Below, in pieces: positions 28,283-57,409 of a DNA stretch of 64,000 bases. The notes beneath the pieces were generated by a model. That model had not been told where the DNA came from. It was given only the letters and a program-made list of their open reading frames with translations, and did no database searches. Source of the stretch: an uncultured Planctomycetaceae bacterium (GTDB lineage: Bacteria; Planctomycetota; Planctomycetia; Isosphaerales; Isosphaeraceae); the NCBI GenBank assembly GCA_963833985.1, contig CAWIAD010000002.1:160001-224000 (forward strand), in the 5' to 3' direction. The translations under genes and the position numbers were made by a program. Position 1 is the stretch's first letter. Every line of letters begins with the position of its first letter.

Positions 28283-31135
28283 ATGTCAACCAACGCCAAA
28301 CCCTACAAAGAGACGCTCAACCTCCCCGTCACCCGCTTCGACATGAAGGCGAACCTCACGGTGCGCGAGCCGCTGCTCCAGGCGCGGTGGCGCGAGCTGG
28401 ATCTCTACGGCAAGGTACGCCAGGCGCGCGCCACTGGCAAGCGGAGGGTCCTGCACGACGGACCACCCTATGCCAACGGCGAGATCCACATGGGGACCGC
28501 CCTGAACAAGATGCTCAAGGACTTCGTGGTCCGCTCGCTCACCATGTGCGGCTTCGACAGCCCTTACGTACCGGGCTGGGACTGCCATGGCCTGCCCATC
28601 GAGCACAAGGTGGTCAAGGAGCTGGGCGGCAAGGCAGCGGGGATGAGCCACGCGCAGATCCGGTCGCTCTGCCAGGCCGAGGCCACGAAATGGGTCGACG
28701 TGCAAAGGCAGCAGTTTCGCCGCCTGGGCGTGCTGGGCGACTGGGAAAACCCCTACCTCACGCTCGACCCGCGGTACGAAGCCGGCATCCTCGACGTGCT
28801 GGCCGACCTGCTCGAAGGCGGCTACATCTTCCGCCAGCTCAAGCCGATTCACTGGTGCATGACCGACCGCACCGCGCTGGCCGAGGCGGAGCTGGAGTAC
28901 CAGGAAGAATCGACGCCCAGCATCTACGTCCATTTTCCCATGCTCGCGGGCGTGCCGGAGTCCTGGAAAGAGTCGGACGGGTCCGCCGACGCCGACTGGC
29001 ACCTCATGATCTGGACGACGACGCCCTGGACGCTGCCGGCGAACGTGGCCGTTGCCGTGCATCCCGATATCGTCTACGCGGGCGTTCGCTACGCCGACCC
29101 GGCCTCCGGCCGTACCATCCGCACCATCGTGGCTGCGGACCTGGTGCCGAAAGTGATGGCGCTGACCCGTGTGTCCAAGCCCACCGTGGTGGGCCGATGC
29201 AAGGGTCGGGAGCTAGAGCACGCCGAGTACCGCCATCCGTTTGTCGACCGCGTCGCTCCCATCGTTCTGGCCGCGTACGTGAGCGTGGAGGACGGCACGG
29301 GACTCGTGCACACCGCTCCCGGCCATGGCGCCGAGGACTATCAGACCGGCCGCGCCTACCAGCTCTCGGTGCTCAGCCCGGTGGACGAATCGGGCCGCTT
29401 CACGACCGAAGCCCCGGAGTGGTTGACCGGTCAGCACGTCTTCGCGGCGAACCCCAGGATCGTCGATCATCTCAGGCAGTCCGGGAACCTGTACCACGAA
29501 ATGCCCCTGGTCCACAGCTATCCGCATTGCTGGCGATGCAAGAAGCCGGTGATCTTCCGGGCCACCGAGCAGTGGTTCATCGCCGTCGATCACAACGACC
29601 TCCGCCAGCGCACGCTCAAGTGCATCGACGAGGTGCGCTGGATCCCCTCCTGGGGCCAGTCGCGCATCGAGGCCATGGTGTCGCTTCGGCCGGACTGGTG
29701 CATCAGCCGCCAGCGCTCCTGGGGCGTGCCCATCCCCGCGCTCGGCTGCACAACTTGCCACACCCAGTTGCTGACGGCCCAGACGGTGCGGCATTTTCGG
29801 GACCTGTTCCGCAAGGAAGGCGCCGACGCCTGGTTCACCAGGCCGGTGGAGGAACTCATGCCGCCTCACGCGGCCTGCCCGAACTGCGGGGGCACGACGT
29901 TCCGCAAGGAAGGCGACATCCTGGATGTCTGGTTCGAATCTGGCTCGAGCCACCGCGCCGTGCTGTCGCAGAACTTCGGCCTCGGTTACCCCGCGCTCAT
30001 GTACCTGGAAGGCTCCGATCAGCATCGCGGCTGGTTCCAGTCGTCGATCCTCACGGCCGTTGGCAGCACGGGCACTGCGCCTTTCGAGAACGTCCTCACC
30101 CACGGCTTCGTGGTCGACGACAAGGGCGAGAAGATGTCCAAGTCGATCGGCAACGTCGTGCTGGCGATGAAGGCCACCGAGCAATATGGCGCCGATGTGC
30201 TGCGGCTCATGGTCGCCAGCATGGACTATGCCGATGACATCCGCATCAGTGAGCGCGGCATCAAGGAGTCGTCGGAGTCCTATCGCAAGATACGCAATAC
30301 GTTTCGATACCTGCTGGGTAATCTGGAAGACTACGCGCGGTTCAACCCCGTCCGCTTTGATCCGGCGGAACTGCACGAGATCGACCTCTGGGCGCTCGGA
30401 CAGCTCAACAAGGTGATCCGCGACGCCGTCGCCGCTTACGAGCGTTTCGAGTTCTATCGGGTGCACCAGCGGGTCTACCAGTTCATGTCCGTGGAGTCTT
30501 CGAGCCTCTATCTCGACGTGCTCAAGGACCGGCTCTATGCCGAGGCGGCCGACAGCCCGCCACGCCGCGCGGCGCAGTTCGTGCTGGCTCGGCTGCACGA
30601 CGCCCTGACGCGACTGCTGGCCCCGATTCTGCCACACACCGCGGAAGAACTCTGGGATTACATGCCGGACACAGCGGAAAAGCCTGCAAGCGTCCATCTG
30701 GCCGAGTTCCCGCCCACCGATCCGCGCTGGGACGACCCGGCGCGCGATGCCCGCTGGGAGACCTTGCTCGAGGTCCGCGAAACGGTCCTCAGGGCCCTGG
30801 AGGGCCTGCGCAAGGACAAGACGATCGGCAGCGCCCAGGAGGCAGTCGTCACGGTTTCGGCCACTGCCGCGGATCTGCCCTTTCTCGAGGCCCATCGCGC
30901 GCTGCTGACCACCCTTTGCATCGTCTCCGAGATCCGGATCGGCTCGCCCCTACCACAGGCGGAAGGCCAGCCTCGGTTCGTCGCCAGCGGCGCACGATCG
31001 CCCCACGCCAAGTGCGAGCGCTGCTGGAACTATCGGCCCACCGTGGGCCAGAGCGTGGAGTTCCCGACTCTCTGCGATCGATGCGTGAACGTCATGGCGA
31101 GCCATTCCGCGCAGCTCCCTGATCGAAGCCTGTGA
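28283..31135 (+). CDS. ileS: Isoleucine-tRNA ligase (type 1)
   Basis: Motifs HDGPPYANG.IHMGT, PGWDCHGLP, WCISRQRSWG, EGSDQHRGWF, KMSKS, and a C-terminal CERC..CDRC zinc finger. Confidence 0.97.
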   Translation: MSTNAKPYKETLNLPVTRFDMKANLTVREPLLQARWRELDLYGKVRQARATGKRRVLHDGPPYANGEIHMGTALNKMLKDFVVRSLTMCGFDSPYVPGWDCHGLPIEHKVVKELGGKAAGMSHAQIRSLCQAEATKWVDVQRQQFRRLGVLGDWENPYLTLDPRYEAGILDVLADLLEGGYIFRQLKPIHWCMTDRTALAEAELEYQEESTPSIYVHFPMLAGVPESWKESDGSADADWHLMIWTTTPWTLPANVAVAVHPDIVYAGVRYADPASGRTIRTIVAADLVPKVMALTRVSKPTVVGRCKGRELEHAEYRHPFVDRVAPIVLAAYVSVEDGTGLVHTAPGHGAEDYQTGRAYQLSVLSPVDESGRFTTEAPEWLTGQHVFAANPRIVDHLRQSGNLYHEMPLVHSYPHCWRCKKPVIFRATEQWFIAVDHNDLRQRTLKCIDEVRWIPSWGQSRIEAMVSLRPDWCISRQRSWGVPIPALGCTTCHTQLLTAQTVRHFRDLFRKEGADAWFTRPVEELMPPHAACPNCGGTTFRKEGDILDVWFESGSSHRAVLSQNFGLGYPALMYLEGSDQHRGWFQSSILTAVGSTGTAPFENVLTHGFVVDDKGEKMSKSIGNVVLAMKATEQYGADVLRLMVASMDYADDIRISERGIKESSESYRKIRNTFRYLLGNLEDYARFNPVRFDPAELHEIDLWALGQLNKVIRDAVAAYERFEFYRVHQRVYQFMSVESSSLYLDVLKDRLYAEAADSPPRRAAQFVLARLHDALTRLLAPILPHTAEELWDYMPDTAEKPASVHLAEFPPTDPRWDDPARDARWETLLEVRETVLRALEGLRKDKTIGSAQEAVVTVSATAADLPFLEAHRALLTTLCIVSEIRIGSPLPQAEGQPRFVASGARSPHAKCERCWNYRPTVGQSVEFPTLCDRCVNVMASHSAQLPDRSL

Positions 31136-31394
31136 CGACTTGACTCGCTCCCAGGTCATCCCATGATCGGTTCAGCAACCGAGTCCCATGCGCGTTCCCG
31201 TGGCCGGAAGCGCGTCGAACTGGCCCGGGGATAGGCCACCCGGTAGGGTGGGTCGAGCGTCCCCGCGAGACCCATCGTCCCGTATTCAATCACGTGCCCT
31301 TCCGCTTCCCTTTTCCGCTTCTTCCGGTGCGCCCTGGGGATGGTGCTGAACCATCCATGTCGCACCTGTTCAGTTTTCGGGACGCACTACAGCA

Positions 31395-32099
31395 TCAACC
31401 TGCGTACCCACCACCGCCGTCAAATTCTGGCCGTCGTGCTCCAGTGTCGTAGGTCATGTTGGTTCGCAGGAAGTTCGGTTCCACAACTCTATTTCTTCTT
31501 GATTCATCCTTGTGAGGCAAGAACCAGCTGCCATCGATGAGGACCACATGCCTGCGGCCTGTCGGTGCCCGCAACCAGGACCGAACTCGGATTCTGGTCG
31601 ATGCTTCGAGGCGGGGACAAACGAACTCGATCGGGAGTACCTCTCCGCGGTCGACCTGTTTGTCGAGAATCACGGCAATTCGACCGGGGCTGATGGCAAC
31701 CAGGGTTCCCTGCCATTTCTCATGTCGCCTGAAGTTCTTGAGAGCTTCCCGGAGAATTGCCTCCATGCGCTCCCTTGGAACTCTCTGGTGGATCTCGTCA
31801 TCCACTTCAAATTCGAGTAAATGTGGTTGCTCGGGATGATTGAAGCTCACCCGCACACGCCGCCGTGCATCTTCGTGATACCAGACATGAATTCCGAGCA
31901 AATCTCCATGTTCGATCACGGCTTGTGTTTTATCGATTGCGAAGTTCGGATGCGAGCGGAACCATTGGTCGATGGTCAGCCGGAGCAGCAACTGGATTCT
32001 GTCAGGTTCCGGCCTTGGCTCGGCGATCTTCACATAGATGCAGCCGGGCTTCAACACGATCACCAAAGCGGTCGCATGTCCGTCGTCTGGTGCAGACAT
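31395..32099 (-). CDS. Hypothetical protein (lower-GC island)
   Basis: Long ORF with atypical codon usage and GAGG/GGA upstream of MSAPDDG. No recognised motif. Confidence 0.5.
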   Translation of the reverse strand: MSAPDDGHATALVIVLKPGCIYVKIAEPRPEPDRIQLLLRLTIDQWFRSHPNFAIDKTQAVIEHGDLLGIHVWYHEDARRRVRVSFNHPEQPHLLEFEVDDEIHQRVPRERMEAILREALKNFRRHEKWQGTLVAISPGRIAVILDKQVDRGEVLPIEFVCPRLEASTRIRVRSWLRAPTGRRHVVLIDGSWFLPHKDESRRNRVVEPNFLRTNMTYDTGARRPEFDGGGGYAG

Positions 32100-32342
32100 G
32101 GTATCCATCCTCATCATTTTTGTGGATTGTCGTGAATCGATCCGGCAACGGGCACGTGCGCTGGGGTCCATTCCATCGGCCTCAACCTTCTCTGCTTTAT
32201 CATGTCTGGCTCCCTGCTGCAATTGCCCGGGCGACTTTATCCACGGGCCTCACTCGACACGGCTGGCGGTTTGACAACCTTGAGCCGCTGATTCACAAAG
32301 AGCATGAGTGCCTTGTGAAGCTTGAGGAAGCGTTTTGCGTCA

Positions 32343-33167
32343 TCAGGATCGAGAATCATGGTCTGGTCCCGTCTCGTCCCCAGCTGTGTTAAACACGGAT
32401 GTCACTTTCCCTGGCGCCATCAGCTCGATGTCCATCAAGAGAATCGCATGATCAGAAAGTGCACCCTTGGTTCGCCCGACCGATCCCAGCACTCCCAGGT
32501 CACACACGTATCTGGACTCCAGGACGGTGAAGTGCCGGCTGACGAAGGCATGATCAAGACGGCAGGGCCTGCCCTTCACTGTCCAGAAGCTCGCCTCTTC
32601 CTTCGCGGGTGATGCCATTTGCCACCCGCCGTCCGTGAGCGTCCCGATACAACCTTTGCATAAGGATTCAGGGTCGTCTGGGTCAGTGTTGAAATCCCCG
32701 ATAAGCACAAAGGGGCGGTCTCTCACGGTCGATGCGGTCTCGTTGATCCAGTTCCAGCAGGCACTCTTGGTCTTCGGGTCGTTGCTGTAATCTGGTATTC
32801 GCAGACCAAGAATTTCGCAGCCGTCCTGCCGCAAGATCACATGGAGGAAGTTCGAGGGCATGGACTTCTCAAGAGCGGGAGCTTGAATGTGGCCGAATTC
32901 TACTGGGCCTCGAGATGCGATGAGAACATGATTCTCTCCCAAGGGAGTGACCCGAGAGACCTGCCAGTAAGGGAAACCACGCCTGGCAAGTTGCTCCAGG
33001 AACGGCTGGCGTGAATCTCCATGTACGTATTCATTGAGCACGATCACATCAGGCTGGAGAGAGGCAATTGCATCCACCAGCATCGCGGGAATCGCCCTCG
33101 CTCTCGCCCTGTGATTGAGATTCCAACCCAGAACTCGCAAACCCACTTTTGAAGTCCTTCCGAACAT
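32343..33167 (-). CDS. Endonuclease/exonuclease/phosphatase family protein
   Basis: Motifs LGWN, PDVIVLNE, LIGDFN, RLDHAFVS, LSDH. Confidence 0.85.
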   Translation of the reverse strand: MFGRTSKVGLRVLGWNLNHRARARAIPAMLVDAIASLQPDVIVLNEYVHGDSRQPFLEQLARRGFPYWQVSRVTPLGENHVLIASRGPVEFGHIQAPALEKSMPSNFLHVILRQDGCEILGLRIPDYSNDPKTKSACWNWINETASTVRDRPFVLIGDFNTDPDDPESLCKGCIGTLTDGGWQMASPAKEEASFWTVKGRPCRLDHAFVSRHFTVLESRYVCDLGVLGSVGRTKGALSDHAILLMDIELMAPGKVTSVFNTAGDETGPDHDSRS

Positions 33168-33941
33168 CAGCACCGCATCGAGACGGTTCGGTTTTCCCGC
33201 GTGATCTCATTATCCTCGGAAAACAATAAGAACAAAAAAGGCATGCATGGTCATCTCGTTCTCCTTGCGTCCAGGTGGTTGAGTTCATTCCGGCATTTTT
33301 CCTCGCGCCCGTCTTCGTGTCCGGCTCTGTGCACTGCCTGGCCCGGAATCGCTTTGTTCCCGGTGATGATTGCACGTCGTCGCCCGGCCCCATAGCCCGA
33401 ATTGGGTTCGATTTCACTCGTCAATCCATTGGGAATCCGCACGCAACTCTCTTTTCGCGATGGCTTTACGTCGAGCACAAAATTGGCTTCGATCGATCCA
33501 TTCTTCGAGCGGTGACCACGACCGGCGTGGAAGGATGGCCCAGGATCAACGGACACCCCCAGCCCGCTCTCTGCCCGCACGCCATGGCGCCAGCGTGGCG
33601 GGCCTTGCAGGGGCCTGCCTCCGCTGGCGATGGCACGACAACCGATTCCGAATTGAGAAAGAGCACGATCAGGAAAATGGGGGTCTTCCCGGAACAGCCC
33701 TGGCGAAACTCGTGTGTTCGGCAGGACCCCGGGAAATCGACCATTGCCCCATTCTTAGTATTCACCAGCGCGTGAGCTTTCACGCGCCTTCCGTTATTCC
33801 TGTGGAACCGTGGCCGGATGGTTGTAGCGGTCCTTCACAAACCTGAAACGGCCGGCGAGGAAGGGCTCGCCACGCTCAACCTCCCGCGCGGCGAAATGAA
33901 TGCGCCAGATCGTCCGGATGCGACTCGATCAGGCCGACCAG

Positions 33942-34160
33942 GTGACCACATGAGCGAGCACGTCGTTCGGTTCGGACGCACGGTGATCTCGTTGCCTGCC
34001 TGGTACGGGGTGAGTGACCACGTACGTGAACACATGGCTCGGAGGGGCGATCCGCCAGGCTGATGCGGGTGACCACGTACGTGAGCACGTGGCTCGGATG
34101 GGCGATCCGCCAGGCTGATGCGCGTGACCACGTGCGTGAGCGCGTGGTTCGGACGGGCGC
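33942..34160. repeat. 55-bp tandem repeat (~2.6 copies plus one degenerate copy) with palindromic cores, REP-like, at the 3' side of the RAYT gene
   Basis: GTGACCACGTACGTGAGCACGTGGCTCGGA.GGGCGATCCGCCAGGCTGATGCG starts at 34014, 34069 and 34124, with a degenerate copy at 33942. The core CACGTACGTG is a perfect palindrome. Confidence 0.85.
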
Positions 34161-34227
34161 AGCCTTCAACCTCGGCCGTGAGGCCGACCAGAACCTGGAC
34201 CGACACACAGAGCATCTCGCCGCGGGC

Positions 34228-35262
34228 TCACCGTGCCGGGCAGCCGCCCAAGTTCGCCAGGTGATGCCGGCCGAGCCGCCCGGCCACGTCCCGCAGCCGT
34301 TCCCGGCTGGCGGCGAAGAACCGGCCCAGCAGCCGGCCACCGGCCAGCTTCAGCAGCCGTGCCTGCCAGCTCTCGGCGTTGCTTCCCAGCCGCTCCAATA
34401 TCCCGGCCAGCTCCGCCGAGATCATCGCCTTCCCTTCGCGAAACACCCGCCCAGTGTAATCCACCAGCAGCAGATAGTTCCCCAGCGAGAACCCCTCGAG
34501 CATCCCTTCCCGCGCTGAGTCGAGACCCCGGCGATCCTCGATCGGGCAGAGCCAGAGCTGCTCTTCCAGCCCGCTCGCCGCCTTCGACCCCGCCACACTG
34601 CCGACCTCGGCGGCCTTCAGATCCTCGGCGCGCTCCTGTTCCTGCACATGCTCCACCCGCTGCTTGATGGACGTGTGCGGGCTGGCCTCGGGCACCTCGG
34701 CGATCCCAGCCGCCACCGGGTTCAGATCGATGTAAGCGCAGGTCGCCAGCAATGATTCCTCGTCCAGGATGGCGACGCTCTGGAACCGCCCCTCGAAGAA
34801 CGCCCCGCGAGTGTTCTCCTCGCGGTTGGCCATCCGCGACAGCGGCTCCTTCAGGCACTTCATGAACCAGCTCAGGCTTTGCAGCCGCTGGCGTGCCATT
34901 GCAACCCACCTGGCGTCTTTCAGCCGTTCCGTGACCCACGCCTCCGAGACCGGCAGGGCCTTTCGTGCCTTGTCGCGCGGTGGAAAAAGCCTCCCCCAGC
35001 GCCGCACGACCTCTTCATCCGACCACCCCACCGCGACATCCGGGTCGAGCCGCACCAGCAGATGTAAGTGATTATCGAGGATGGCGAACCCGCCCACGGC
35101 GATCGAGAAGATCTCCGCAAGTTCCTGGACTCGCCGTTCGATCCATTCCTTGCGGTCGACTCCGCCTTCACCCAGCAGAAACGCCCGCCGCACGCACCGC
35201 GTGATGCAGTGATACCAGCGGGTAACCGTCGGATCCACCAGATGCGCCTGCGCGATCGTCAT
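34228..35262 (-). CDS. REP-associated tyrosine transposase (RAYT-like HUH/Y1 transposase)
   Basis: YHCITRCVRRAFLLG, HUH motif DNHLH, FFEGRFQS, catalytic YIDLNP. GAGGAG RBS. Confidence 0.9.
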   Translation of the reverse strand: MTIAQAHLVDPTVTRWYHCITRCVRRAFLLGEGGVDRKEWIERRVQELAEIFSIAVGGFAILDNHLHLLVRLDPDVAVGWSDEEVVRRWGRLFPPRDKARKALPVSEAWVTERLKDARWVAMARQRLQSLSWFMKCLKEPLSRMANREENTRGAFFEGRFQSVAILDEESLLATCAYIDLNPVAAGIAEVPEASPHTSIKQRVEHVQEQERAEDLKAAEVGSVAGSKAASGLEEQLWLCPIEDRRGLDSAREGMLEGFSLGNYLLLVDYTGRVFREGKAMISAELAGILERLGSNAESWQARLLKLAGGRLLGRFFAASRERLRDVAGRLGRHHLANLGGCPAR

Positions 35263-38200
35263 GTCCGGATCTCCTCGCAAGATCCGCACAACCTACCAGA
35301 TCGGCCCGGCCAAGGCAAGACTGCGTTGCATGTCCTTCTGTCCTTCTTACCAGATCGGCCCGGCCAAGGCAAGACTGCGTTGCATGTCCTTTCTGTCCTC
35401 TCCAACCCCAGATCGGCCCGGCCAAGGCAAGACTGCGTTGCATGTCCTTTCTGTCCCTTTTGTCCCTTTTGTCTGTCTGTTTCTGTCTGTCTGTCCTTTC
35501 CTTTCTGTCCTCCTTCTGTCCTTTCCTTTCTGTCCTTTCTGTCCTTTCCCATCTGTCCTGACTTCACCTTCGATTGCGTTCGCAGCTTCTCAAGAATTGC
35601 CACAAATCGTGGATCGCCGCGAAGAGCGTCGATATCGGGATCAGTTTCGAGCTGGTAATGGTCGTCGAAGCCGGACGTGATCGCCAAATTCAGTGCCTCG
35701 AACGATCGATCGATGAGCTTCTTGCGCTCCGTGAGCCGTTCGGGCGACCACGTCTCGACCGGGTGGTCCCGGTCGAGGTTGTCGGCGGCGATGGCCAGCG
35801 CGAAGGCGCTCTGCAACCGATAGTTCGCCGCGGACTCGTACCCGCCGCCCTGTGCCGCCACGTACTTGAGCAGGTTCTCCGCCTTGGTTCGCGCGAGTTC
35901 GGTCTTCCCGCCCCGGGCCAGGGCGAGCATCCAATCGATAGCAACCCCGAGGTCCCTGGTCCTGGCGCGCGTGTTGCTCGCGGATCGCCAGACATTCGTC
36001 GTACAGCTTCTGCGACTCGGATCGGTTGCCCAGCTTCAGGGCGGCCGTGGCCGACTTGTACAGCATCTGGGATAAGGCTCTATTGATGGCCAGCAGATCG
36101 TCGGATGCGCTCAGATCCCGCGCCAGGGCGAGTGATTCGTCGTACGATTTCTTGGCCTCATCGGCCTGACCCAGGAAGTAGTGCACATCGCCCAGGGTTT
36201 CGAGTATCCTCGACAGATCCAGCCTGTAAGACTGGTTGTTCGGCTTGAGGCTGAGGAGCTCGCGTCGCACGCTGGCCGCTCTCTCGAACTGCTCGACGGC
36301 CAGCCGTCCCGCCTTGTCGCGTTGATGGAGGGCCGCCATCCTATAGTGGAGCTGGGCCACATATACGAGGTCCTCCTCATCGCGGCGCGAAGCCATGACT
36401 TCTAGATACAACGCCAGGGAGCGGTTGAGCAACTCGATCGCCTCAGCGGGTCTTCCCAGCTCGTAGGTGTCCCACCCCAAAGCAGAAAGAGACTTCGCGA
36501 CGAAGCCCTTCCGCGCGGCTTCCGTGTAATGCGGCGTGCGCGGAGAGCGGAGCACGCGTTCGGCAATCGCGAGCGACCTCGAATGGCCCTCGAACGCCCT
36601 GGCGTACTGTCGGTTCATGATCTCGAAATCGGCAACCTTCGCGTAAGCCACCGAGAGGTTCATGGCGGCGAGGTCGAAGTCCGTCGTCTCGTTCTTGTCG
36701 ATCTCCTCCGCCAGGGCGATCGCCCGGGCATATTTTTCCCGGACCGTCTCGACATCCGCATCGCCTCGCGAACGCAGGCTGTCCGCCTCGTGAAGCATCA
36801 GTGTCAGCTTCGCCCGCTGGGTCATCCCGTCCGAGTCGGCTCGGGAAATCTTGTCCACGAATTGCAAGACTTGGCGGCCGAACTGGTCCTGGACGGTCTT
36901 CGTGTAGATCGAGCTTTCGAGCGTATGACGTAGATCATGCACGGCGAAGCTGATGGCCGTTCGATAGCGATCGTACTGCTGCTTCTCACCTTCGCGTGCC
37001 CTGGCCTCGGCAAGGCGCGCCGCTTCCGTCTCCTTTCGACGGCTCTCGGCCCGGATCATGCCGTATGTCGTCCCCGCGATGCCGGCCAGCAGGCTCAAGA
37101 GGACCATGCTAGCGGCAATTACCGCGCCTCGATGCTTGCGGATAAACTTCCTCATCCGGTAGGTGCGGGAGGGCGGCGCGGCCACCACCGGCTCGTGGGC
37201 CAGGTGCCGCTGGATGTCGGCCGCGAAGCCGTTGGCCGTCTCGTAACGACGCGACCGGTCCTTCTCCAGCGCCATCATCACGATCCAGTCGAGGTCCCCC
37301 TGCAACGCCCGCTTCAGGTGCGCCGGCTCGACGTCGCGGCTGGCTGCGATGTTGGGTAGCGCATCGGACGTGCTCACCTTGGTGCTCGGCCTGGGCGGGT
37401 CGACCTCCCGCACCATCCGCAGCATCTCCAGGATCGCACCCCGCTTGAACTGCTTGGCATCGAGCGGCGGCGAACCCGCCAGCAGCTCGTAGAGGATCAC
37501 GCCCAGCGCATAGACGTCGGTCCTCGTGTCGATGTCCATCGACGACGGGTCGGCCTGCTCGGGCGACATGTAGGTCGGTGTGCCCACGATTGCCCCGGTG
37601 TCGCCGAGGCTCTGGTCGGTGAGGTCGAATTCCGTTGCCTTGGCGACACCGAAATCGATAACCTTGGGCGTCGGCCGGCCGTCGACCTCGGTGACCATCA
37701 CATTGCTGGGCTTCAGGTCGCGGTGGATGATCCCTTTTTGGTGCGCGTGCTGCACGGCCTGGCAAACCTGGACGAACAATTCCAGGCGTGCCTGGACCCC
37801 CAGCCGCTTGCCGTCGCAATACTCGGTGATCGGCTCGCCTGGGACGAGCTCCATCACGAAGAACGGTTGGCCGGCCTCGGTGGTGCCGCCGTCGAACACG
37901 CGGGCGATGTTGGGGTGGTCCATCAACGCGAGTGCCTGCCGCTCGGCGTCGAAGCGAGCGAGGACCGCGCGCGAGTCCATGCCGATCTTGATCAGCTTGA
38001 GCGCGACCTGGCGTTTGACTGGTGCCGTTTGGCTTGCCCGATAAACGGTGCCCATGCCCCCCTCGCCGAGGACTTCGAGCAGCGAGTACCGGCCAGCGAT
38101 GACCTGGCCCACTCCGGATCCGCCGGGCCGGCCGCCGCGCGGGGCGACCGCCAATGCGAACTCCGCGCCGTCGGATCGAAGCTCCCCGGTCGCCAGTGCG

Positions 38201-38457
38201 GATAGCGGAAGCGTTGCCGCGTCCGGTGCCGGGGTCTGGTCGAGAGTTTCGTGTGAGGTCGATTCGTGCATTCCCGTGCCGTCTGCTTCCACGGGTCGTC
38301 CGGCCGCGTCGTGAGTGGTGAGCAGTGCTTCCACCTGCGAGCGGAAATCGGCATCATCTCCGCAGACGGTGTCGAGGTAAGTGGCCCGCGCGGCTGGATC
38401 GGTCCGTTTCAGGGCTTCGGCGACGATGGTCATGACCTTCGGGTCATTCGCGGGCAT
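35259..38457 (-). CDS. Serine/threonine protein kinase with TPR C-terminus; frameshift near 35960; the C-terminal frame runs through the repeat array
   Basis: Motifs GEGGMG, VALK, HRDLKPSN, DFG, YMSPEQ. The tail GFDDHYQLETDPDIDALRGDPRF is in the 35259-35930 frame. Confidence 0.88.
35290..35318 (-). promoter_or_regulatory. Probable sigma70 promoter of the RAYT gene
   Basis: TTGCCT (35318-35313)-17 nt-TAGGTT (35295-35290). The -35 box and spacer lie inside repeat copy 1. Confidence 0.6.
35296..35560. repeat. Three identical 42-bp repeats followed by a ~110-bp TGTCC(T)n stutter tract
   Basis: CCAGATCGGCCCGGCCAAGGCAAGACTGCGTTGCATGTCCTT at 35296, 35350 and 35408. The linkers (12 and 16 nt) and the tail are built from fragments of TCTGTCCTTT. 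Confidence 0.92.
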
Positions 38458-38541
38458 CAGTTCATCTCCTAGCCGAGGGGCTCATTCCCCATGCCTCATC
38501 GGGCGCGGCGGTGCGCCTGGGGATCCCGAAAGGAGTTTAGA

Positions 38542-38640
38542 TTACCTGACGGCCGACGCGTCGGCGAGCCGGGACCGGGCGAACGCCCAGCGGCGGTCGG
38601 CGGTCCGGCGGCAGATGCCCCGGGAGTAGGCCGTGAGCGG
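38542..38640 (-). pseudogene. 3' remnant of a planctomycete ECF sigma factor
   Basis: GICRRTADRRWAFARSRL resembles the region-4 end (GIS.RTA.R.W..ARAWL) of ECFs that precede kinases. No upstream coding part is present. Confidence 0.6.
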
Positions 38641-38739
38641 CAACGCGTCAGATGACTGGACTGCGCCGAATCGGGCATGGACGCACCCCGTTAGCAAATC
38701 GAGCCTTGATTTCTGGGCCGCTTTGCCCGCGATGTCGGA

Positions 38740-38890
38740 AAAGCAAGGAAACCAAGGAAAGGACATGCACATGCAAGTAAGAAAGTAAGGAAAAGTAAGG
38801 AAAGGACACGCAATGCAGTCTTGACTCGAGAAGAAGAGGAGAAGAAGAAGAAAGAAGAGGAGGACAGGCAATGCAGCCTGCCCTGGAGCT
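38740..38890. repeat. Inverted, degenerate array of the RAYT end motif with purine stutter tracts
   Basis: AAGGACATGCA (~38759), AAGGACACGCAATGCAGTCTTG (~38802) and AGGACAGGCAATGCAGCCTGCCCTGG (~38861) match the reverse complement AAGGACATGCAACGCAGTCTTGCCTTGG of the 42-bp repeat. Confidence 0.8.
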
Positions 38891-39579
38891 ACCGGCCCAG
38901 CGTCGGTCAGAACCCGCAGGTCCGGACGCTCTGTGATCGCTGTGCCAGTGTGCTGAGCGGTGGTCCCGCAATCGCTTGAGTCCGACCATTTCTCCGTTCG
39001 CCCACGAGGTTGGCGCCCATCGCCGGCAACGCAAGTGTCCGATTCACCGCGCCTTGACAGGCACGCCGGATGCCGCGCGGACCGCTGTCGATCCGTGTGG
39101 CTCACGCTGGGTGGCGTGAGGCCCCTTGCGTACGTATGAGATCGCAGGCCATGCCGCATGACCCCGGCAATGGCCGCGAGCATAGGGCAACCGTTCGCCG
39201 ATCCAGCGCACGGGTGGGTGCTGACGCGATCGAGCATGTCTCTCAGGTAGGGTCGAGTACTTCGGGCACGATTTCAATCGTGTCATTCTCCTTCCTTTAG
39301 CCCCAATGCCTTTTAACGAAGCACAACTACGGTCTGCTTAATGAGTCTCGCCTGACAACCCGCCGAGAATTCGTTGGGGATTCGTCGTGTCCGGGTGCGT
39401 TTTGGCAATCTCCTGGAAGAAGCGAAACCCCGACGGGGCGGATGATGTGATCGCCCGATTGGTTTTCGCAGGATCTCGAGAAACTCAATCAGGGCCGCGG
39501 AAACGGCGTGCAATCGGTGAGTCTCGCAGAGGCTCCGCGCTCGCCGTTCGGCCTGTCACTCCCAGCGAGGGGGGGAATC

Positions 39580-41943
39580 ATGACATCGTTCTTTTCAGGC
39601 AGAGTCCGCGATGATCGCATGAACCGACGTCAAGTGCGCCGGAAGCGTCTCACCATTGAGCCACTTGAAGACCGCCAAATGCTAACGACCTTCCTCGTCA
39701 CGAGTACCGCCGACAGCGGGGCCGGCAGCTTGCGGCAGGCGCTCATCAGCTCGAATTCCGTCAAGGGGCCGAACACGATCAACTTCAACATCGCCGGTAC
39801 TGGTGGGCACACGATCACCCTGAACTCACCGCTGGCCGTGATCACTCAACCCGTGGTGATCGACGGCACGTCCGAGCCCCATAGCGGGGGCCTGCCGCTC
39901 ATCCAGATCGATGGCACGAGCGCGGGATCCTCGGCGATCGGGCTGAGCGTTGGCTCGACCGCTTCGGCGAGCGTCATCAAGGGCCTGTCCATCACGGATT
40001 TCAAAGGTGGCGGCCTGCTCGTCAACGGGGCCTCCAACGTCACCATCTCCAACGATCTGTTCGGGATGACGAGCCCTTCACTGGGCCCGATCACGCTGCG
40101 GGCCAACGGCGGTTTCGGCATCGAGCTCGAGAATGGCGGCAGCCATAATACCGTGAGCGGCGTGGACATCGTGGGCGGATCTCAGACCCAGGGCGTCCTG
40201 ATCACCGGCACCAACACGAGCAACAACACCGTCCAGAACTCCGAGTTCGGGTCCGATCCCAGTGGAACGATCTTCGTCGCCAGCAACTTTCCCACGCTGG
40301 AGTCGAACACGGCAATTGCGATCACGAAAGGAGCCGCGAATAACCTGGTCACCGGGAACCTGCTCGCGACTTACTTCAGTTATGGTGTCTACCTGGCGGA
40401 CACTGGCACGGCGAGCAACGTGCTCACGGGCAACAAGCTCGGCACGGATGTCACGGGCACGCACCTGGCGGGCGGCAACCCGGCCTTCGGAATCTATTTC
40501 GCTGGTGGAGCGACGAGGAATACCGTCGGCGGCACGACCTCAGCCAGTCGCAACCTGATCGACGGCAACCAAGCCTGCGGCATCTTCTTCGCGCCAGGCT
40601 CGTCGAACAACCTCGTGGAAGGTAACAACATCGGCACGAACGCCGCGGGCACCGGTGCTCTGCCCAACGTGACCGGCGTGGTGCTCGAGGCCGAGTCCCG
40701 CTACAACACGATCGGTGGAACCACCACAGGCGCTCTCAACCTGATCTCGGGAAACTCGTTTGCCGGGGTTGACCTGGTCGGGGCGTCAAACACTCTGATC
40801 GAGGGGAATGACATCGGAACGGATGTCACGGGCACCAAGCCGCTCCCCAACGGCGGCAACGGCGTGTTGGTGCAGAATGGGTCAGGCTGTAACACGATCG
40901 GCGGGACCACCGCAGGCGCCCGCAACGTCATCTCGGGGAATGGCACCAACGGCGTCCTCATCACCGACGCCTGCACCTCGCTGAACCTGATCGAGGGGAA
41001 CTACATCGGCACCAATGCCGCGGGGACGGGCCCGGTCGCCAATGGCAACGACGGCGTGTTGGTCCAGTCCGGGGCCACCTCGAACACGATCGGAGGAACC
41101 ACCACCGGCGGCCTCAATGTCATCTCGGGCAACCAGGTCTGCGGCGTCTATCTTCTCGGTGCCGGTACCTCACTCAACGTGGTTGAGGGCAATGAGATCG
41201 GAACGACCGCCGCGGGCACCGGTGCTCTGCCCAATCTTATCAACGGCGTGGACATCGTCTCCGGGGCAACCAACAACACCATTGGCGGCACGACTCCCGG
41301 CACTCGCAACATCGTCTCGGGAAACACCTACAACGGCGTGGTCATCGCCTTTGCCGGCGCCTCGAACAACATCGTCGAAGGCAATGATATTGGAACCACG
41401 GCCAACGGCGTGGGAGCCCTCCCCAACGGTGCCGACGGTGTCGATGTGATCGGCGGAGCGACGGGCAACACGATCGGCGGCTTATCGCCTTCCCAGGGCA
41501 ACGTCATTGCCGGGAACCGGAACAACGGCATCACCATCACAGGCGCCGGCACCAACGCCAACCTCATCCTCAGCAATCATATCGGCACGGATCTCACGGG
41601 GACGGTGCCACTCGGAAACCTGGGTAACGGCGTGCAGTTCGACAGCGGGGCGTCCAACAACCTGCTAGGCGGTTCGACCGGCAGCGGCCTGAACTACATC
41701 GCGTTCAACCAGGGCAATGGAGTTCTCATAACGGGCGCAGGCACGACCGGTAACGTGGTCCAGTACGATTTCATTGTCCAGAATGGCCAGAACGGCATCT
41801 CCGTCTCTCAGGCGGCCGGAAATACGATCCAGGATTGCACGATCGAGATCAACGCGTGGTGGGGCATCGCCCTCACACAGAGCGATCCCACCTACCTCAT
41901 CAACAACATCCTTGCCGGCAACGGCTACGGGGGTATCTCGTGA
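39580..41943 (+). CDS. Secreted right-handed parallel beta-helix repeat protein
   Basis: IEPLEDRQML planctomycete signal, DSGAGSLRQA, and repeated NTIGGTT..RNVISGN..N.IEGN.IGT units. Confidence 0.88.
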   Translation: MTSFFSGRVRDDRMNRRQVRRKRLTIEPLEDRQMLTTFLVTSTADSGAGSLRQALISSNSVKGPNTINFNIAGTGGHTITLNSPLAVITQPVVIDGTSEPHSGGLPLIQIDGTSAGSSAIGLSVGSTASASVIKGLSITDFKGGGLLVNGASNVTISNDLFGMTSPSLGPITLRANGGFGIELENGGSHNTVSGVDIVGGSQTQGVLITGTNTSNNTVQNSEFGSDPSGTIFVASNFPTLESNTAIAITKGAANNLVTGNLLATYFSYGVYLADTGTASNVLTGNKLGTDVTGTHLAGGNPAFGIYFAGGATRNTVGGTTSASRNLIDGNQACGIFFAPGSSNNLVEGNNIGTNAAGTGALPNVTGVVLEAESRYNTIGGTTTGALNLISGNSFAGVDLVGASNTLIEGNDIGTDVTGTKPLPNGGNGVLVQNGSGCNTIGGTTAGARNVISGNGTNGVLITDACTSLNLIEGNYIGTNAAGTGPVANGNDGVLVQSGATSNTIGGTTTGGLNVISGNQVCGVYLLGAGTSLNVVEGNEIGTTAAGTGALPNLINGVDIVSGATNNTIGGTTPGTRNIVSGNTYNGVVIAFAGASNNIVEGNDIGTTANGVGALPNGADGVDVIGGATGNTIGGLSPSQGNVIAGNRNNGITITGAGTNANLILSNHIGTDLTGTVPLGNLGNGVQFDSGASNNLLGGSTGSGLNYIAFNQGNGVLITGAGTTGNVVQYDFIVQNGQNGISVSQAAGNTIQDCTIEINAWWGIALTQSDPTYLINNILAGNGYGGIS

Positions 41944-42049
41944 CGGGAGCTGGTCCCGGGGCAGAAAATGAGAGGCGGCGGGGTGGACGCACACGTGGCC
42001 ATCTGCCCCGAACGCCGGGACGTGCGGACCCGCGACGATACGATGTGCG

Positions 42050-42130
42050 GGTCGGGCTGACGTTCGAGGTTGGCGGCTGCGCCCGTGAAAACCACGTGCT
42101 GACGCACGTGGCCATCCACCCCCGACTCCA
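42050..42130. repeat. Solo inverted copy of the RAYT 3'-flank element
   Basis: GTCGGGCTGACGTTCGAGGTTGGCGGCTGCGCCCGTGAAAACCACGTGCTGACGCACGTGG aligns with the reverse complement of 34124-34190. Confidence 0.7.
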
Positions 42131-42252
42131 GGCGCTCGCGCATGTGGGTATCCACCGTCCAGACGCTTGTGCGAAGATACGACTGACTCGACGCTGGTCG
42201 GCGCCCGGAGTTCCGCACCGGGGCCGATCCGTCCTGGACGACGTCGTGCCCG

Positions 42253-45200
42253 ATGGAGTTCCCCATGTCCCCGGACACCAACCGATGCCCGACTTGCGGC
42301 GCCCTGCGACCCGCGGACGCCCCGGAGGGCCTTTGCCACGCCTGCCTGACACTCCAGACTCTGGGTCATGACGCTTCCGTGCCGGCCGGAGCCGCCACCA
42401 CAGCGGGTGCGGACGCCACTGGCTCCGGTGACTCGCCCGAGCCCGAGCCGGTGCATCCCGAGGCGATCCACGAACAGACTCTCACGTCAGCCACGAGGAT
42501 CGTACCGTCCCCGGCCGAAGCCACAAGTGCCGGGCCAACTGACCACAACCAGGCGACCCACACTCCCGACGGCGACGGGGCGACAAACGACCTGCCGCGC
42601 GGCGCCACGGTGCGTTATTTCGGCGACTACGAGGTCCAGACGCTGCTGGGACGCGGGGGCATGGGCGTTGTGTACAGGGCCCGCCAGGTCAGCCTCAATC
42701 GGCCCGTCGCCCTGAAGATGATCAAAGCTGGCGTCCTGGCCGACGACGCCGAACTGCGCCGGTTCCAGAACGAGGCCGAGGCGGTCGCGCTGCTCGATCA
42801 CGCGGGCATCGTTCCGGTGTACGAGGTCGGCGAATACGACGGCCAGCGCTACTTCAGCATGAAGCTCATCGAGGGCGGCAACGTCGCCGAGAAGCTCGAC
42901 GCGTTCGCGGACGATCCCCGGGCGGCGGCGATCCTGCTGGCCGAGGCGGCGGAGGCGGTCCACCACGCCGCACATGCGCGGCATCCTTCACCGCGACCTG
43001 AAGCCGGCGAACATCCTGATCGACGCCCAAGGCCACCCGCACGTCACCGACTTCGGCCTGGCCAAGCGGGTCCAGGCGGATCTGGAGATGACCGCCAGTG
43101 GGGCGATCCTCGGCACGCCAGCCTACATGAGCCCCGAACAGGCAGCCGGACATCGCGGCACGATCACAACGGCGACCGACGTTTACGGCCTGGGCACAAT
43201 TCTCTATGCCCTGTTGACCGGGCAGGCTCCGTTCGGCGGCGATGGCGTGATCGAGACGCTCGATTTGGTACGCTCGCGGCCGCCGGAGCCGCCAAGGCGG
43301 ATCAACGCCCGTACCCCGCGTGATCTGGAGACGATCTGCCTGAAGTGTCTGGAGAAGGACCCGCGGCGCCGCTATGCCTCGGCGCAGGCGCTGGCCGACG
43401 ACCTGCACGCCTGGCTCGAGAGCCGGCCGATCACCGCCCGGCCCGTTCCATCGATCGAGCGCGCCGTACTCTGGTGCCGGCGGCGTCCGGCGATTGCGGC
43501 GCTGGCCGCCACGGTGGTGCTGGCGGTCCTCACCGGCACGGCGTCAGTCATCCTCGTGCAGGCCCGGGCCAACCAGGAGCTGGAGGCCAAGAACCGCGAG
43601 CTGGCCCGGGCGAACGCCGAGCTGGCCGAGGAGAAGGGCCGCGTGCAGCGCCGGTTCGAGCTGGCGCAGGAGGCGATCCGGACCTTCCACACCGGCGTCA
43701 GCGAGGACGTCCTGCTCCGCGAGAAGCAGTTTGACGCGCTACGGACCAAGCTGTTGCAGGGCGCCCGCGAGTTTTACCGCAAGCTCGAGGGCCTGCTCCA
43801 GGGGCAGCCCGACCGCGCCTCGCGCAAGGCGATGGGGAAGACCTACCTCGAGCTGTCGCTCCTCGCCGGCAAGATCGAGGGCCTCGACACGTCGACCCGG
43901 ATCGCCCGCGATGCCCTGGCGGTGTTCGAGTCGCTGTACCGCGAGGACCCGACGGACCACGAGGCGCGCCGCGAGCTGGGCCTGGCATGGAACTTTTTCG
44001 CCGTCCGGCGGTACTCGCAGAACGGAGGCCTTCCCGAAGCGATGGAGGCGTTCCGGCACGCCTACGAGATCCTGGACCCGCTGGCCCAGGGCGAACCGCC
44101 CGATGTCGAGGCGCGGTTGGAGCTGGCTTCGGCCTGCAACCTTCTGAGCTTCTTGGTGAGCGGCCTGGGAGGACGCGAAAGTCGCAACGAGGTGATCGCA
44201 CTTCAAGACCGCGCCGGACGCTCGTGGAAGGCCTCGCCCGGCTCGAAACCCTCGACGAAACGCTTCGGTTTCGCGTGGCGACGTTCTCGGACATCCAGGC
44301 CTTGGTCCTGGGGGGGAGCTCGAGCGGCAAGACGAGGCCAACGAAGCGTTCGCCCGCGCCCGCGCGATCCTTGACGACCTGGTCCGTGCCCATCCAACCA
44401 ACTCGGAATATGCGTCCGCACTGACTCGGGCCTACGGCAACTCCATGGTCAGCATCGACGAGCGAGACGGCCGCCGCGATGCGGATCGCCTCGCACTGGG
44501 CCGGCGGGTCCGGGAGGTCTGCGATGAAATGGCCGTGCAATACCCGACCATCACCGCCTTTCGAGGCAACAAAGCCTGGATTGATCTCATGATGGCGACG
44601 ACCCTGATCGAGATCGACCGGGATGCCGAGGCCCTGCCGTTGCTCGAGGAAGCCCGGTCGATCCGGGCGGACATGACCCGGGCGGACCCGAACGACACCC
44701 GTTACCATGAGCAGCTCGCGGCAACTCTGCTCGACCTCCGCGCCCTGCACGCCCGCGCGGGGCGGTTCGCCGAGGCGCGGGCGGCGCGAGTCGAGGCGGT
44801 GGCGATCCTGGCTCGCGTCGCACGGTGGAATCACGAGGATGCCACGCTCCTCGACGACCAGGCGAGCAACCTCACCGACTGCTCGGACCTGATCCTCCGC
44901 AGCGCTCGGACCGCCGACCCCGCCCTCATGGCCGAGGAGGCGGGCGCCGGTTACCGCGAGGCCGTCGCGATCCGCGAGCGGCTCGTCGTCGCGCACCCGA
45001 AGGCCCTGCGCTTCCGCAATCATCTGGCCTATAAGTTTGCGCCGGCTGGCGCTGGTCGAGCGCGACCTCGGCGACGTCGCCGGTGCGGTTGCAAGGACGA
45101 CCCGGGCCACTCTACTCTTTGAAGGGCTGCCGCCGGAGGAGGCCCGAAGCTGGACTGCGTTCGAGCTAGCCTGCTGTCGCGCCGCGCTGGCTGGCCTGGT

Positions 45201-45399
45201 CGGTCCGGGGTCCTCGCTCGGCGAAGCCCCCGCGCTGGCCGACCGCGCCATGCAACTCCTGCGCGATGCCTACGCACTCGGCTACCGCAATCTGGTCGCC
45301 TACCGCAGCGACCCCGGCCTCGACCCGCTCCGCGACCGCCCCGACTTCCGGCTACTCATGCTCGATCTGGCTTTCCCGGCCCAGCCATTCGCGCGGTGA
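42253..45399 (+). CDS. Serine/threonine protein kinase with TPR C-terminus; four frameshifts (~42970, ~44215, ~44312, ~45035); pseudogene or sequencing errors
   Basis: GRGGMG/VALK are in the first ORF and HRDLKPAN/DFG/YMSPEQ in the next. The terminal GYRN..DPGLDPLRDRPDF..DLAFPAQPFAR is in the last ORF. Confidence 0.85.
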
Positions 45400-45601
45400 C
45401 CGCGAGCCGGTGCGAACGGTTCCCCTGGAAGAAAAGAAGGTCGGACATTGCCGTCTCCCTCCGCGGGCGCTGGCCGCCTGGCTTGACTCCGGCGCGTTCG
45501 CGTCCTACGAGACCTGTATCCGTTCCTCGGGATCAAGCCCTCCACGGCGGTCGCCACCTGTCTTCCGGCTGACGCGGGCCGAACCAGGCCGTGAGGTCAC
45601 G

Positions 45602-47488
45602 TTGTCAATTATCAGCCGCCTCGCGTGGAGTCCAGGACTTGCCGGTCGGGCCGGCACGGATGGTTCCAGCACGCCCGACAAGCGGGACGAGCGGTTGCCT
45701 TACGACCTGACAATTCGCCTCGCTCTGCTGGCATTCACCGCGCTCTTGCCGACGATCGCCATCAAGTTTGTCGGCGGGGACGACAGTGTCAACTTCCTCG
45801 AGAATCAGGAATTCCGCGGACTGGGCTGGGAACAGCTCAGGTGGGCCTGGGGAAGCACGCTCGTCGGTGTTTACCAGCCGGTCGCCTGGATGCTGCTTGA
45901 GGCTCAGTATGCACTCTGGGGGCTGAACCCCCGGGGTTATCATGTCGTGAGCCTTACACTCCACGCCCTGGATACCGTGGTGCTGTTCACGCTCACGGTC
46001 ACGCTCATCCAGCGGTGCCGGCCCGACCTCTGCGCCGCGGAGCGACGCCTCATGTACCAGACGACTGCCATCGCCGTGGCACTCTACTCGGTCCACCCAT
46101 GGCGGGCTGAGGTCACATCGTGGGCCTCATGCCAGCCGTACTTGCCCTGCGCACTGTTCTCGATGCTTTCGGTGCTGGCCTACTTGCACGCCCAGGACGG
46201 AGCCCGGTCGCGCCGGTCGTCGTGGGCGTGGGTCGGAGTGTCGTTCGTACTTTACATCACGGCGGTCATGTGCAAGGCGCCGGCGGTCTGTCTGCCGGCG
46301 ATCCTGCTGATTCTCGACGTTTACCCGCTCCGCCGGCTTGGCGGCCGGTCAAACCTGAGAGCTGGCTGGTTAAGCCGTGAGGCGATCGCCGTCTGGGCGG
46401 AGAAGGTTCCGTTCGCGGCGGTGGCGCTGACGATGATGATCGTCGCCGTCGTCGCCCGGGAGTCGCTGTCGGCGAGCATTGTGCATCCTTTGAGTTTCCG
46501 GATCGCACAGGCGTGTTACGCCGCTGTCTTGTACCTGTTCAAGACGATTGTACCGGTGGGGATCACCGCGTTTTACCCGTTCCCCACCCATCCCTCGTGG
46601 ACGCAACCCCGGTTCGTCTTGAGCATCGCTTTCGTCGCGGTCGCGAGCATCGCCCTGTTCCGGCTCAGGCACCGCCTGCCGGGACTACTGGCGGCCTGGG
46701 CGGCTTACCTGGTGATCCTGGCCCCGACGTCGGGGCTCGTGCCGATGGGGCGGGCGATGGTGGCCGATCGGTACACGTACCTCGCAATGATGGTCTGGGT
46801 TGCTCCGACTGCCGCCGGTCTGACTCTGCTGATCCGCCGGGCCGATCGAGCCTGGAGGGTCGTCAGCTTTGCGGCAGCGGTTCCTGTCGTACTGGGGCTA
46901 TCGGTGGCGAGCTGGTTTCAGTGCGCAACCTGGTCGAGCGCTGAGGCAATATGGACCAACGCGCTGGAGCACGGAGGTCAGGACTCTTCCGATGTCCACA
47001 ACGGTCTGGCGCTGGCCTACGCCCAGTCTGGGATGTTCTCGGACGCGGAAGTCCATTTCAAGAAAGCCGTTGCGATCAACCCGGACCAGGCTTCGGTTCA
47101 GAACAACCTGGGGCTGTTGCTGTGCGACCTGGGGAAGCTGAACGAGGCGGTCCCGCATCTGCTCGAGGCGATTCGCCTGAAACCGAACTTTGCCCCTGCA
47201 TACAACAATCTGGGGATCGTCTTCTCCCGCAAGGGCAAATCGAAGGACTCGGAATTCTTCTACCGTACGGCCCTCGTCATGAAGCCGAGGAGTCCCGAAT
47301 TCCGCGGCAACCTGGGGGTCGCGTTGCTGGACCAGGGACGGTTCGCCGAGGCTGCAATCGAGTTCCAGGCCGCCCTGAAGCTAAGGCCCCAGGACAAGAG
47401 GGCCCAGAGCGGTTTGCAAAGAGCCCGCGCCGGCACGGACGACAGCCATATCGCTCCAAACGCTTCCCACAAGCCAACGGCCCTCTGA
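45602..47488 (+). CDS. TMTC-like membrane glycosyltransferase (GT-C fold) with TPR repeats
   Basis: Motifs DD..N, YQPVAW, GYHVVSLTLH, VHPWRAEVTSW, ADRYTY, and C-terminal TPRs (NNLG). Start uncertain. Confidence 0.8.
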   Translation: MSIISRLAWSPGLAGRAGTDGSSTPDKRDERLPYDLTIRLALLAFTALLPTIAIKFVGGDDSVNFLENQEFRGLGWEQLRWAWGSTLVGVYQPVAWMLLEAQYALWGLNPRGYHVVSLTLHALDTVVLFTLTVTLIQRCRPDLCAAERRLMYQTTAIAVALYSVHPWRAEVTSWASCQPYLPCALFSMLSVLAYLHAQDGARSRRSSWAWVGVSFVLYITAVMCKAPAVCLPAILLILDVYPLRRLGGRSNLRAGWLSREAIAVWAEKVPFAAVALTMMIVAVVARESLSASIVHPLSFRIAQACYAAVLYLFKTIVPVGITAFYPFPTHPSWTQPRFVLSIAFVAVASIALFRLRHRLPGLLAAWAAYLVILAPTSGLVPMGRAMVADRYTYLAMMVWVAPTAAGLTLLIRRADRAWRVVSFAAAVPVVLGLSVASWFQCATWSSAEAIWTNALEHGGQDSSDVHNGLALAYAQSGMFSDAEVHFKKAVAINPDQASVQNNLGLLLCDLGKLNEAVPHLLEAIRLKPNFAPAYNNLGIVFSRKGKSKDSEFFYRTALVMKPRSPEFRGNLGVALLDQGRFAEAAIEFQAALKLRPQDKRAQSGLQRARAGTDDSHIAPNASHKPTAL

Positions 47489-47591
47489 GTCCACCAAGAA
47501 CAGACGCGCCCAGCGGCCGAAGTTGCATTCCCTTCCCGCGCGGTCATAATGAATCAGGCCCATATCGCTTGCGCCTGGAAGGTCTGGTCCC

Positions 47592-56381: not shown

Positions 56382-56394
56382 TGGGAAGGTGTAA

Positions 56395-57316: not shown

Positions 57317-57409
57317 TAAGGCGTCGGGTGTTTCCGACACCTCATCCCCGGACCTGCTGCGCCTCTTGATGTCCGTCCAGCAATCCCAAGGCCAGGAAGC
57401 GCAAGGATC

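Follow-up and report, generated by a model that had tools for sequence, protein, structure and literature searches.

The 64,000-nt stretch of DNA analysed here (the window) comes from an uncultured Planctomycetaceae bacterium (assembly GCA_963833985.1, contig CAWIAD010000002.1, positions 160,001 to 224,000) and carries, at 34228 to 35262 on the minus strand, the gene for a 344-aa TnpA-Y1 HUH transposase, which probably belongs to a mobile, TIRtron-like transposon of subclass 2.3 bounded by terminal inverted repeats (TIRs) with a GGACA core. In the reading that we favour, at a probability of roughly 0.6, this element and 3.2 kb of flanking DNA formed a circle that integrated at the 3' end of ileS, an essential tRNA-synthetase gene, and the arrays of partial end copies (stutter) beside its ends arose through nicking, extension and resealing. 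The architecture, the multicopy spread, the polar nested duplications, the positions of the junctions and the circular permutation of the element are established.

The left end of the element (35263 to 35335, minus strand, with its GGACA core at 35335-35331) is followed outward by a first stutter array (35336 to 35560, minus strand). As the initial annotation had described, three identical 42-bp units stand here, at 35296, 35350 and 35408, the latter two being nested copies outside the end, and they pass into an irregular TGTCC/T-rich tract of short unit-plus-GGACA copies that extends to 35560; equally as described, three degenerate inverted cores lie at 38761, 38804 and 38862, each with its own purine stutter ahead of it. 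The outer two form a second array (38740 to 38861, plus strand), in which 38804 is a truncated left-end-type copy with a unit of its own. The third is the right-end core of the element (38862 to 38882, plus strand), and 38841-38942 matches, at 80% identity, the right end of a sister element (C2:2549645-2549742, C1 and C2 being the two contigs of the 10.16-Mb source genome). A search of that genome, as the initial annotation had proposed, returned no copies of the 42-bp unit beyond these three, and a GGACA end about 73 nt upstream of the gene in 12 of 13 near-full transposase copies. The two arrays had been taken for inverted arms enclosing a cargo; they are instead the outer faces of one element's two ends, left and right, which stand back-to-back with the kinase segment 35561-38739 connecting them.

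That captured segment (3179 bp, minus strand) holds a Ser/Thr kinase-TPR gene (38457 to 35561) and, at about 38540-38633, an ECF remnant whose Sigma70_ECF match reaches an E-value of 0.14 only. Both had been thought to be cut at the arrays, which holds for the kinase and fails for the ECF gene. The junction splits the kinase stop codon, and the kinase frame reads into the tract without a stop. In two metagenome contigs with the same kinase and no arrays, that is, empty sites (L126, 93% identical over 672 nt, and L127, 90% over 285 nt), the first base of the stop codon corresponds to window position 35561, exactly at the junction, and in contigs of the runs X1 and X4 the match likewise begins at 35561; the kinase has therefore lost only its stop. 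The ECF gene was broken earlier and not at the array, because its homology ends about 105 bp short of the array and the array-free genome G060 has the same remnant and the same 105 bp beyond it, within an orthologue of 35593-38739 (84.8% identical) whose homology stops at 38739, the array edge. A frameshift near 35964 in the kinase gene is missing from relatives. Neither native flank of the segment was found in the source genome, and among 13 same-genus genomes no match extends past the kinase domain. The idea that the enclosed segment has moved thus gains support, as its borders coincide to the base with the arrays in array-free relatives and the element is circularly permuted around it.

The permutation becomes apparent by comparison with a linear sister element (C2:2547629-2549750), in which the left end, the gene, a 70-mer, 89-bp repeats, an ileS-like piece of 250 bp and the right end follow one another in that order. 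The window presents the same parts as 31024-31274, then 33802-35337, then the kinase, then 38841-38942. The first of these (31024 to 31274, plus strand) is the right-hand part of the element, consisting of the ileS-like 3' piece and one 89-bp repeat, and is 88% identical over 251 bp to C2:2549454-2549704. It overlaps the end of ileS itself (28283 to 31135, plus strand; Pfam tRNA-synt_1 and zf-FPG_IleRS), whose last ~75 nt match the element-borne copy and, in a three-way alignment, constitute the left junction of the integrated unit, with a crossover at about 31059-31074. A second copy of the ileS 3' end (38883 to 38979, plus strand; zf-FPG_IleRS E 2.4e-4) forms the right junction, with a crossover at about 38918-38933, and the two together are a reciprocal mosaic: at sites where they differ, the sister element agrees with the 38883 copy at 7/7 (nt 17-34) and with ileS at 16/16 (nt 51-80), while nt 45 follows the 38883 copy and nt 37 neither. 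The ileS ends of relatives lean the same way, by only 1-3 nt in most cases. The reciprocal mosaic and the permuted order together point to a single crossover between a circle of element plus kinase and the resident ileS. In this reading the left end would have inserted in the kinase stop codon, and the right end (or that of a second copy) would have been joined 3.2 kb away, beyond the promoter region of the kinase, freeing a circle of one element and the kinase; one crossover, in which the ileS-like piece within the element's right end recombined with the 3' end of the resident ileS, may then have integrated this circle and left ileS intact.

Several observations weigh against this account of the locus. 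The relatives are 85-93% identical, and their flanks may differ for unrelated reasons; G060 diverges already 32 bp before the 3' junction; and the crossover is not clean, as its parents share only ~77% there and nt 5, 9 and 41 side with ileS, contrary to the simple pattern. Nor do arrays commonly pair around genes elsewhere, a point that the initial annotation had proposed to test: a back-to-back end lies upstream of only 7/55 left ends, the partner being the element's own right end in the two cases of L060 and L071 (around a 0.75-kb and a 1.4-kb gene), and the four back-to-back pairs of the source genome taken alone are not clearly above chance (P of at least four pairs, 0.07). Capture is consequently well supported once, at this locus, and weakly as a habit. 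Separately, an inward end pair at C2:3037728-3039230 of the source genome surrounds 1.5 kb with PIN-like and excisionase/helix-turn-helix-like open reading frames (ORFs; judged by eye), a possible non-autonomous cargo element.

A rather unlikely alternative is that the kinase never travelled: it would be part of an older island at an ileS hotspot, ends having landed on both sides of it and deleted the neighbouring DNA, and the sister element having been derived from this locus later. The order of events is indeed inferred, and the sister element could stem from the window locus. Across Isosphaeraceae, the 3' end of ileS seems to be a hotspot for insertions: ileS and purN are at most 1.4 kb apart in 19/24 relatives (L194-L217), against 16.5 kb in the source genome, a difference that also speaks for the integrated circle, and they are separated by other genes in many relatives. 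Moreover, end arrays cluster in the source genome (15 neighbour pairs within 8 kb, against 1.6 expected), and three sisters hold different lengths (251, 164 and 131 bp) of ileS-side DNA. An older island would, however, require two separate recombinations to yield the reciprocal mosaic, and a right end would have to have landed precisely at the start of the ileS duplication; moreover, no match to an integrase or recombinase family was obtained among the ORFs scanned, which were not all of them, in 31135-47592, between ileS and purN. In finer detail, the gap between ileS and purN is no more than 100 bp in 8/24 relatives and 0.3-1.3 kb in 11, while in five purN is out of reach. The ileS-like piece is found in none of 80 element loci from other genomes and is so far a trait of the source genome only.

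The assignment of the transposase, judged by its motifs, length, copy number and matches of 35-37% in Alteromonadales and relatives, is to TnpA-Y1 of the subclass 2.3 type. The protein matches PF01797 (Pfam, E 1.7e-5); N64-H65-L66-H67 and Y177-IDLNP supply the HUH and Y---NP motifs that define TnpA-Y1 class 2, with H65, H67, Y177, N181 and P182 invariant in 21/21 aligned proteins (21 of 26 rows tried), and YIDLNP, T197-S198, a HUH-to-Y distance of ~110 aa and the length of 344 aa agree with subclass 2.3, which has a motif of the YVDLNP type, a TS extension, a long core and ~325 aa. The Y---Q motif, the length of ~150 aa and the subterminal hairpins of IS200/IS605 were seen neither in the transposase nor at the ends. 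The predicted structure (predicted local distance difference test score 73) comes closest to E. coli TnpA-REP 4er8 (Foldseek E 0.004; Z 8.9, root-mean-square deviation 3.9 over 158 residues), with IS608 TnpA as a further fold match, while a PDB sequence search with the transposase gave no significant match and atlas matches of residues 230-344 were limited to unnamed clusters under 0.9. Close homologues occur in Isosphaeraceae and Pirellula records, and the host is a planctomycete. The initial annotation had labelled the enzyme a RAYT (a tyrosine transposase associated with repetitive extragenic palindromes, or REPs), a label that has to be given up: the RAYT family model NF047646 scores it at 38.5 bits against a cut-off of 80, there is no end hairpin, no C|T rule is apparent in the genomic restarts, and the gene is multicopy, whereas RAYTs and REPtrons are single-copy and not mobile as units. 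The frame extending from the kinase across the stutter reaches its stop at 35259-35262, where ATGA overlaps the start codon of the transposase, probably by chance.

The 13 near-full copies in the source genome, 85.7-99.2% identical in nucleotides, are accompanied by many fragments. Among the 80 loci in other genomes, several of which come from the same genome, so that the counts are not independent, the left motif is present at 66/76 testable loci and the inverted right motif downstream at 47/68. The core is (A)GGACA[TG]GCA, with A at position -1 in 84% and at -2 in 64% of 135 ends; the end profile contains neither a GTAG tag nor the GGGGWSAS motif of some TIRs of TIRtrons, only GGACA being shared, and in folding the left end does not surpass shuffled sequences (z -0.06 and 0.78) and forms no hairpin. 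Four inward end pairs of 45-52 bp in the source genome resemble miniature inverted-repeat transposable elements (MITEs) and are dimeric TIR derivatives. No fixed target-site duplication, such as marks classical TIR insertion sequences, emerged: in 47/55 pairs the flanks had no more in common than those of controls (13 nt), in a comparison to which duplications below ~8 nt are invisible. Individual duplications do occur, of ~110 bp of target on both sides of an element inserted in the end of another Y1 family (L132, G021:C1) and of 18 bp at L080. A small family that shares the start GGACAGGCA, followed by a short palindrome within GGCAGT-rich repeats (C1 297084, C2 5714558 and others in the source genome), was excluded from the end census.

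Stutter is a trait of this family and not a peculiarity of the locus. In other genomes, the 7-mer adjoining the core recurs outside 42/113 ends, against 209/16000 random and 201/24666 A-rich control sites, or about 1%, which is more than chance; exact tandems start outside 63/135 distinct ends and inside 11/135, compared with 22/600 random draws. The copies restart 8-12 nt outside the GGACA core, the restart overlapping -14 to -7 in 125/166 events with a peak at -10, and not at the AAGGACA terminus, where the initial annotation had placed the cut. Across the 166 events neither junction shows a dominant dinucleotide; 70 have zero microhomology and 96 at least 1 nt of slack, and the genomic restarts at the 70 clean junctions, which are counts of restarts and not of cleavage, comprise three C|T, 12 C|A and at least eight other types. 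The truncated end copies reach from 5 to 545 nt inward, and the units are A/G-rich and of low complexity. Since near-identical sister copies with one common terminal unit bear different stutters (L059-L069), the arrays form at or after insertion. The terminal unit itself was considered as a target duplication and rejected, as the small inward pairs carry different inverted units at their two ends and units are common to the sister copies L059-L069. The distant relatives G021 and G004, with other cores, also stutter, G004 (L133, L137, L129) with a 34%-identical homologue that has a GGGGCCACCCA core and, at either end, arrays of 600 to >900 bp. In the source genome, one-sided nested duplications were also seen at the end-like motifs GTGTCAGTTCGTTT, GGGGCCACCCA and GGGGTCAGG (C2 near 3199900, 1452900 and 504900), as at L076.

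Repeated cutting and rejoining near the end motif, which the initial annotation had invoked, still explains the arrays best. Because the restarts lie 8-12 nt outside the core, follow no fixed dinucleotide and need no microhomology, we infer from the sequences that nick, extend and reseal would be the simplest chemistry: the enzyme would bind the GGACA core and nick the inward-reading strand ~10 nt outside it, host polymerase would extend the free 3'-OH into the element over varying lengths, and the 5' end linked to the tyrosine would be resealed to the new 3'-OH, each cycle adding one more partial end copy. Certain findings weigh against the favoured reading. The right end is undetectable at 21/68 loci; some arrays combine unlike units and inner sequences (at 38761/38804/38862 of the window and at C2 802308/802369); and a pair of copies whose genes are 99.2% identical differ in their unit and terminal 20 bp. 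The mixed arrays and the swapped ends mean that pure copying in cis fails to explain all arrays. They favour a different route, to which we give about the same low credence as to the older island, in which arrays grow in trans as the ends of other copies undergo repeated abortive insertion or copying into an existing end, through target-primed copying and template switching; the copy of left-end type that lies beyond the right end in the 38740-38861 array and short end cores joined to unrelated DNA (ileS, internal transposase pieces) point in the same direction. Against assembly in trans, most arrays repeat a single locus-specific unit, bases peculiar to the locus or junctions formed earlier are included in some copies (L064, L069), and an inspection by eye, which was not systematic, revealed no leftover of an interrupted element on the far side.

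Host repair or slippage, for instance by end-joining polymerases at breaks left by the transposase and with no HUH reseal step, is distinctly improbable; the low-complexity A/G-rich units and the slack at 96 of the events would suit it, but the restart distance from the core is fixed, the remaining 70 junctions lack microhomology, and copies of up to 545 nt with a strict outward polarity are hard to reconcile with it. A long-read assembly artefact, conceivable in a window with probable indel errors (kinase frameshifts), is scarcely credible, as the footprint appears at 18/56 ends in assemblies judged short-read by their contig names and 24/57 in the remainder, and stutter is clearly displayed in the complete isolate records NZ_CP074588.1 and NZ_CP026605.1 (two of the five gammaproteobacterial records viewed).

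The remaining features of the region are accessory. The element body 3' of the gene (33802 to 34194, minus strand) contains the start of an 89-bp repeat, 55-bp tandem repeats and, at 34125-34194, a 70-bp palindrome-like repeat, and the 89-bp repeat is split by a nested 2.5-kb insert of 56% GC (31275 to 33801, no strand assigned) with an ORF of no known family and an EEP nuclease gene. A degenerate end-like motif with A-rich stutter inside the insert, at ~33218-33250, had been a candidate for the right end of the element (~33240) and was dropped once the circular permutation was seen. The 70-bp repeat, which carries two small hairpins (z -0.6) and sits downstream of the transposase gene in the source genome, has 127 copies there, often in arrays of 130-137 bp and in both orientations; 47/127 lie <3 kb from a transposase match and 80/127 >3 kb from any, and in other genomes none was seen by eye behind the transposase gene. 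Another copy (42045 to 42114, plus strand), with no apparent link to the unit, follows a beta-helix extracellular protein gene (39508 to 41943, plus strand) that is a bystander outside the unit; a cargo element made of the left end, this gene and the 70-mer found no support, given the 80 distant copies. At 42253-45399 there is a second kinase-TPR gene, in several frames probably because of assembly indels, and at 56394-57320 a 927-bp element, 99.8% identical to one directly behind the transposase copy at C1:2894925, that is probably an unrelated insertion sequence (IS).

The locus bears on how TIR-associated Y1 enzymes act, as members of a family of single-strand hairpin chemistry that sit between inverted ends on opposite strands. 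Here the footprint makes a precise prediction, namely that the inward-reading strand is nicked 8-12 nt outside GGACA, with no dinucleotide rule. More broadly, the locus suggests a route for moving the many kinase modules of planctomycetes and a way of reaching a conserved integration site without an integrase. It is possible, although on balance doubtful, that subclass 2.3 Y1 enzymes at large constitute distinct self-mobile HUH transposons that cut at a fixed distance from a short core, place new ends in host genes and routinely release circles with flanking genes, the captured ileS 3' fragment here taking the part of an integrase as a homology arm that restores the gene. Our search, outside which most subscription literature lies, yielded no publication in which TIRYT or subclass 2.3 enzymes are described as giving nested duplications of their ends or capturing flanks, and none on ileS islands.

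The one-ended capture of IS91/ISCR and Helitron elements likewise involves an HUH enzyme, a variable far end and captured pieces of neighbouring genes; those systems use Y2 or Rep-helicase HUH enzymes with ori and ter ends, in contrast to the Y1 enzyme with two like ends seen here. The layout is nonetheless not without counterpart, as the initial annotation had believed, since TIRtrons, the model for amplification of bacterial interspersed mosaic elements (BIMEs) and the translocatable units of IS26 are analogues. IS26 units share a circle of one element and adjacent DNA that re-integrates and differ, as far as the available portions of PMC4196232 and PMC4894685 go, in a DDE enzyme and insertion at another IS26, the present element having an HUH enzyme and integrating via an element-borne ileS fragment. 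With REPtrons and TnpA-REP, the element has in common the fold and, in the parts of Ton-Hoang et al. 2012 (PMC3333891) available, a BIME model of nick-primed copying and re-joining that yields tandem copies and needs a second cut; here there is no GTAG end hairpin, no C|T preference is apparent in the restarts, the inner break requires no second cut site, and the element is multicopy as a whole. TIRtrons (Di Nocera et al. 2013, PMC3733652) likewise have a Y1 gene between inverted repeats unrelated to REPs, and dimeric TIR derivatives, with GGGGWSAS in place of (A)GGACA[TG]GCA; the portion of that paper at hand makes no mention of nested end duplications or mobility. In the available text of Quentin et al. 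2018 (PMC6006769), TIRYT is assigned mainly to subclass 2.1, genes of which a preprint (10.1101/2020.03.09.984088, in the part at hand) linked to lanthipeptide diversification, the causal claim being withdrawn. Subclass 2.3 as treated in PMC6006769 shares the NHxH, YxDLNP and TS motifs, the length of ~340 aa, several diverged copies per genome and the Alteromonadales relatives at 35-37%, and in the literature consulted on TnpA-Y1 it has so far been without a described DNA partner, the text available reporting no flanking DNA structure. The present element adds TIRs, MITE-like derivatives, stutter and flank capture, in Planctomycetota. Set beside these systems, novelty lies in the subclass, in the measurements, in the empty sites and in the permuted circle.

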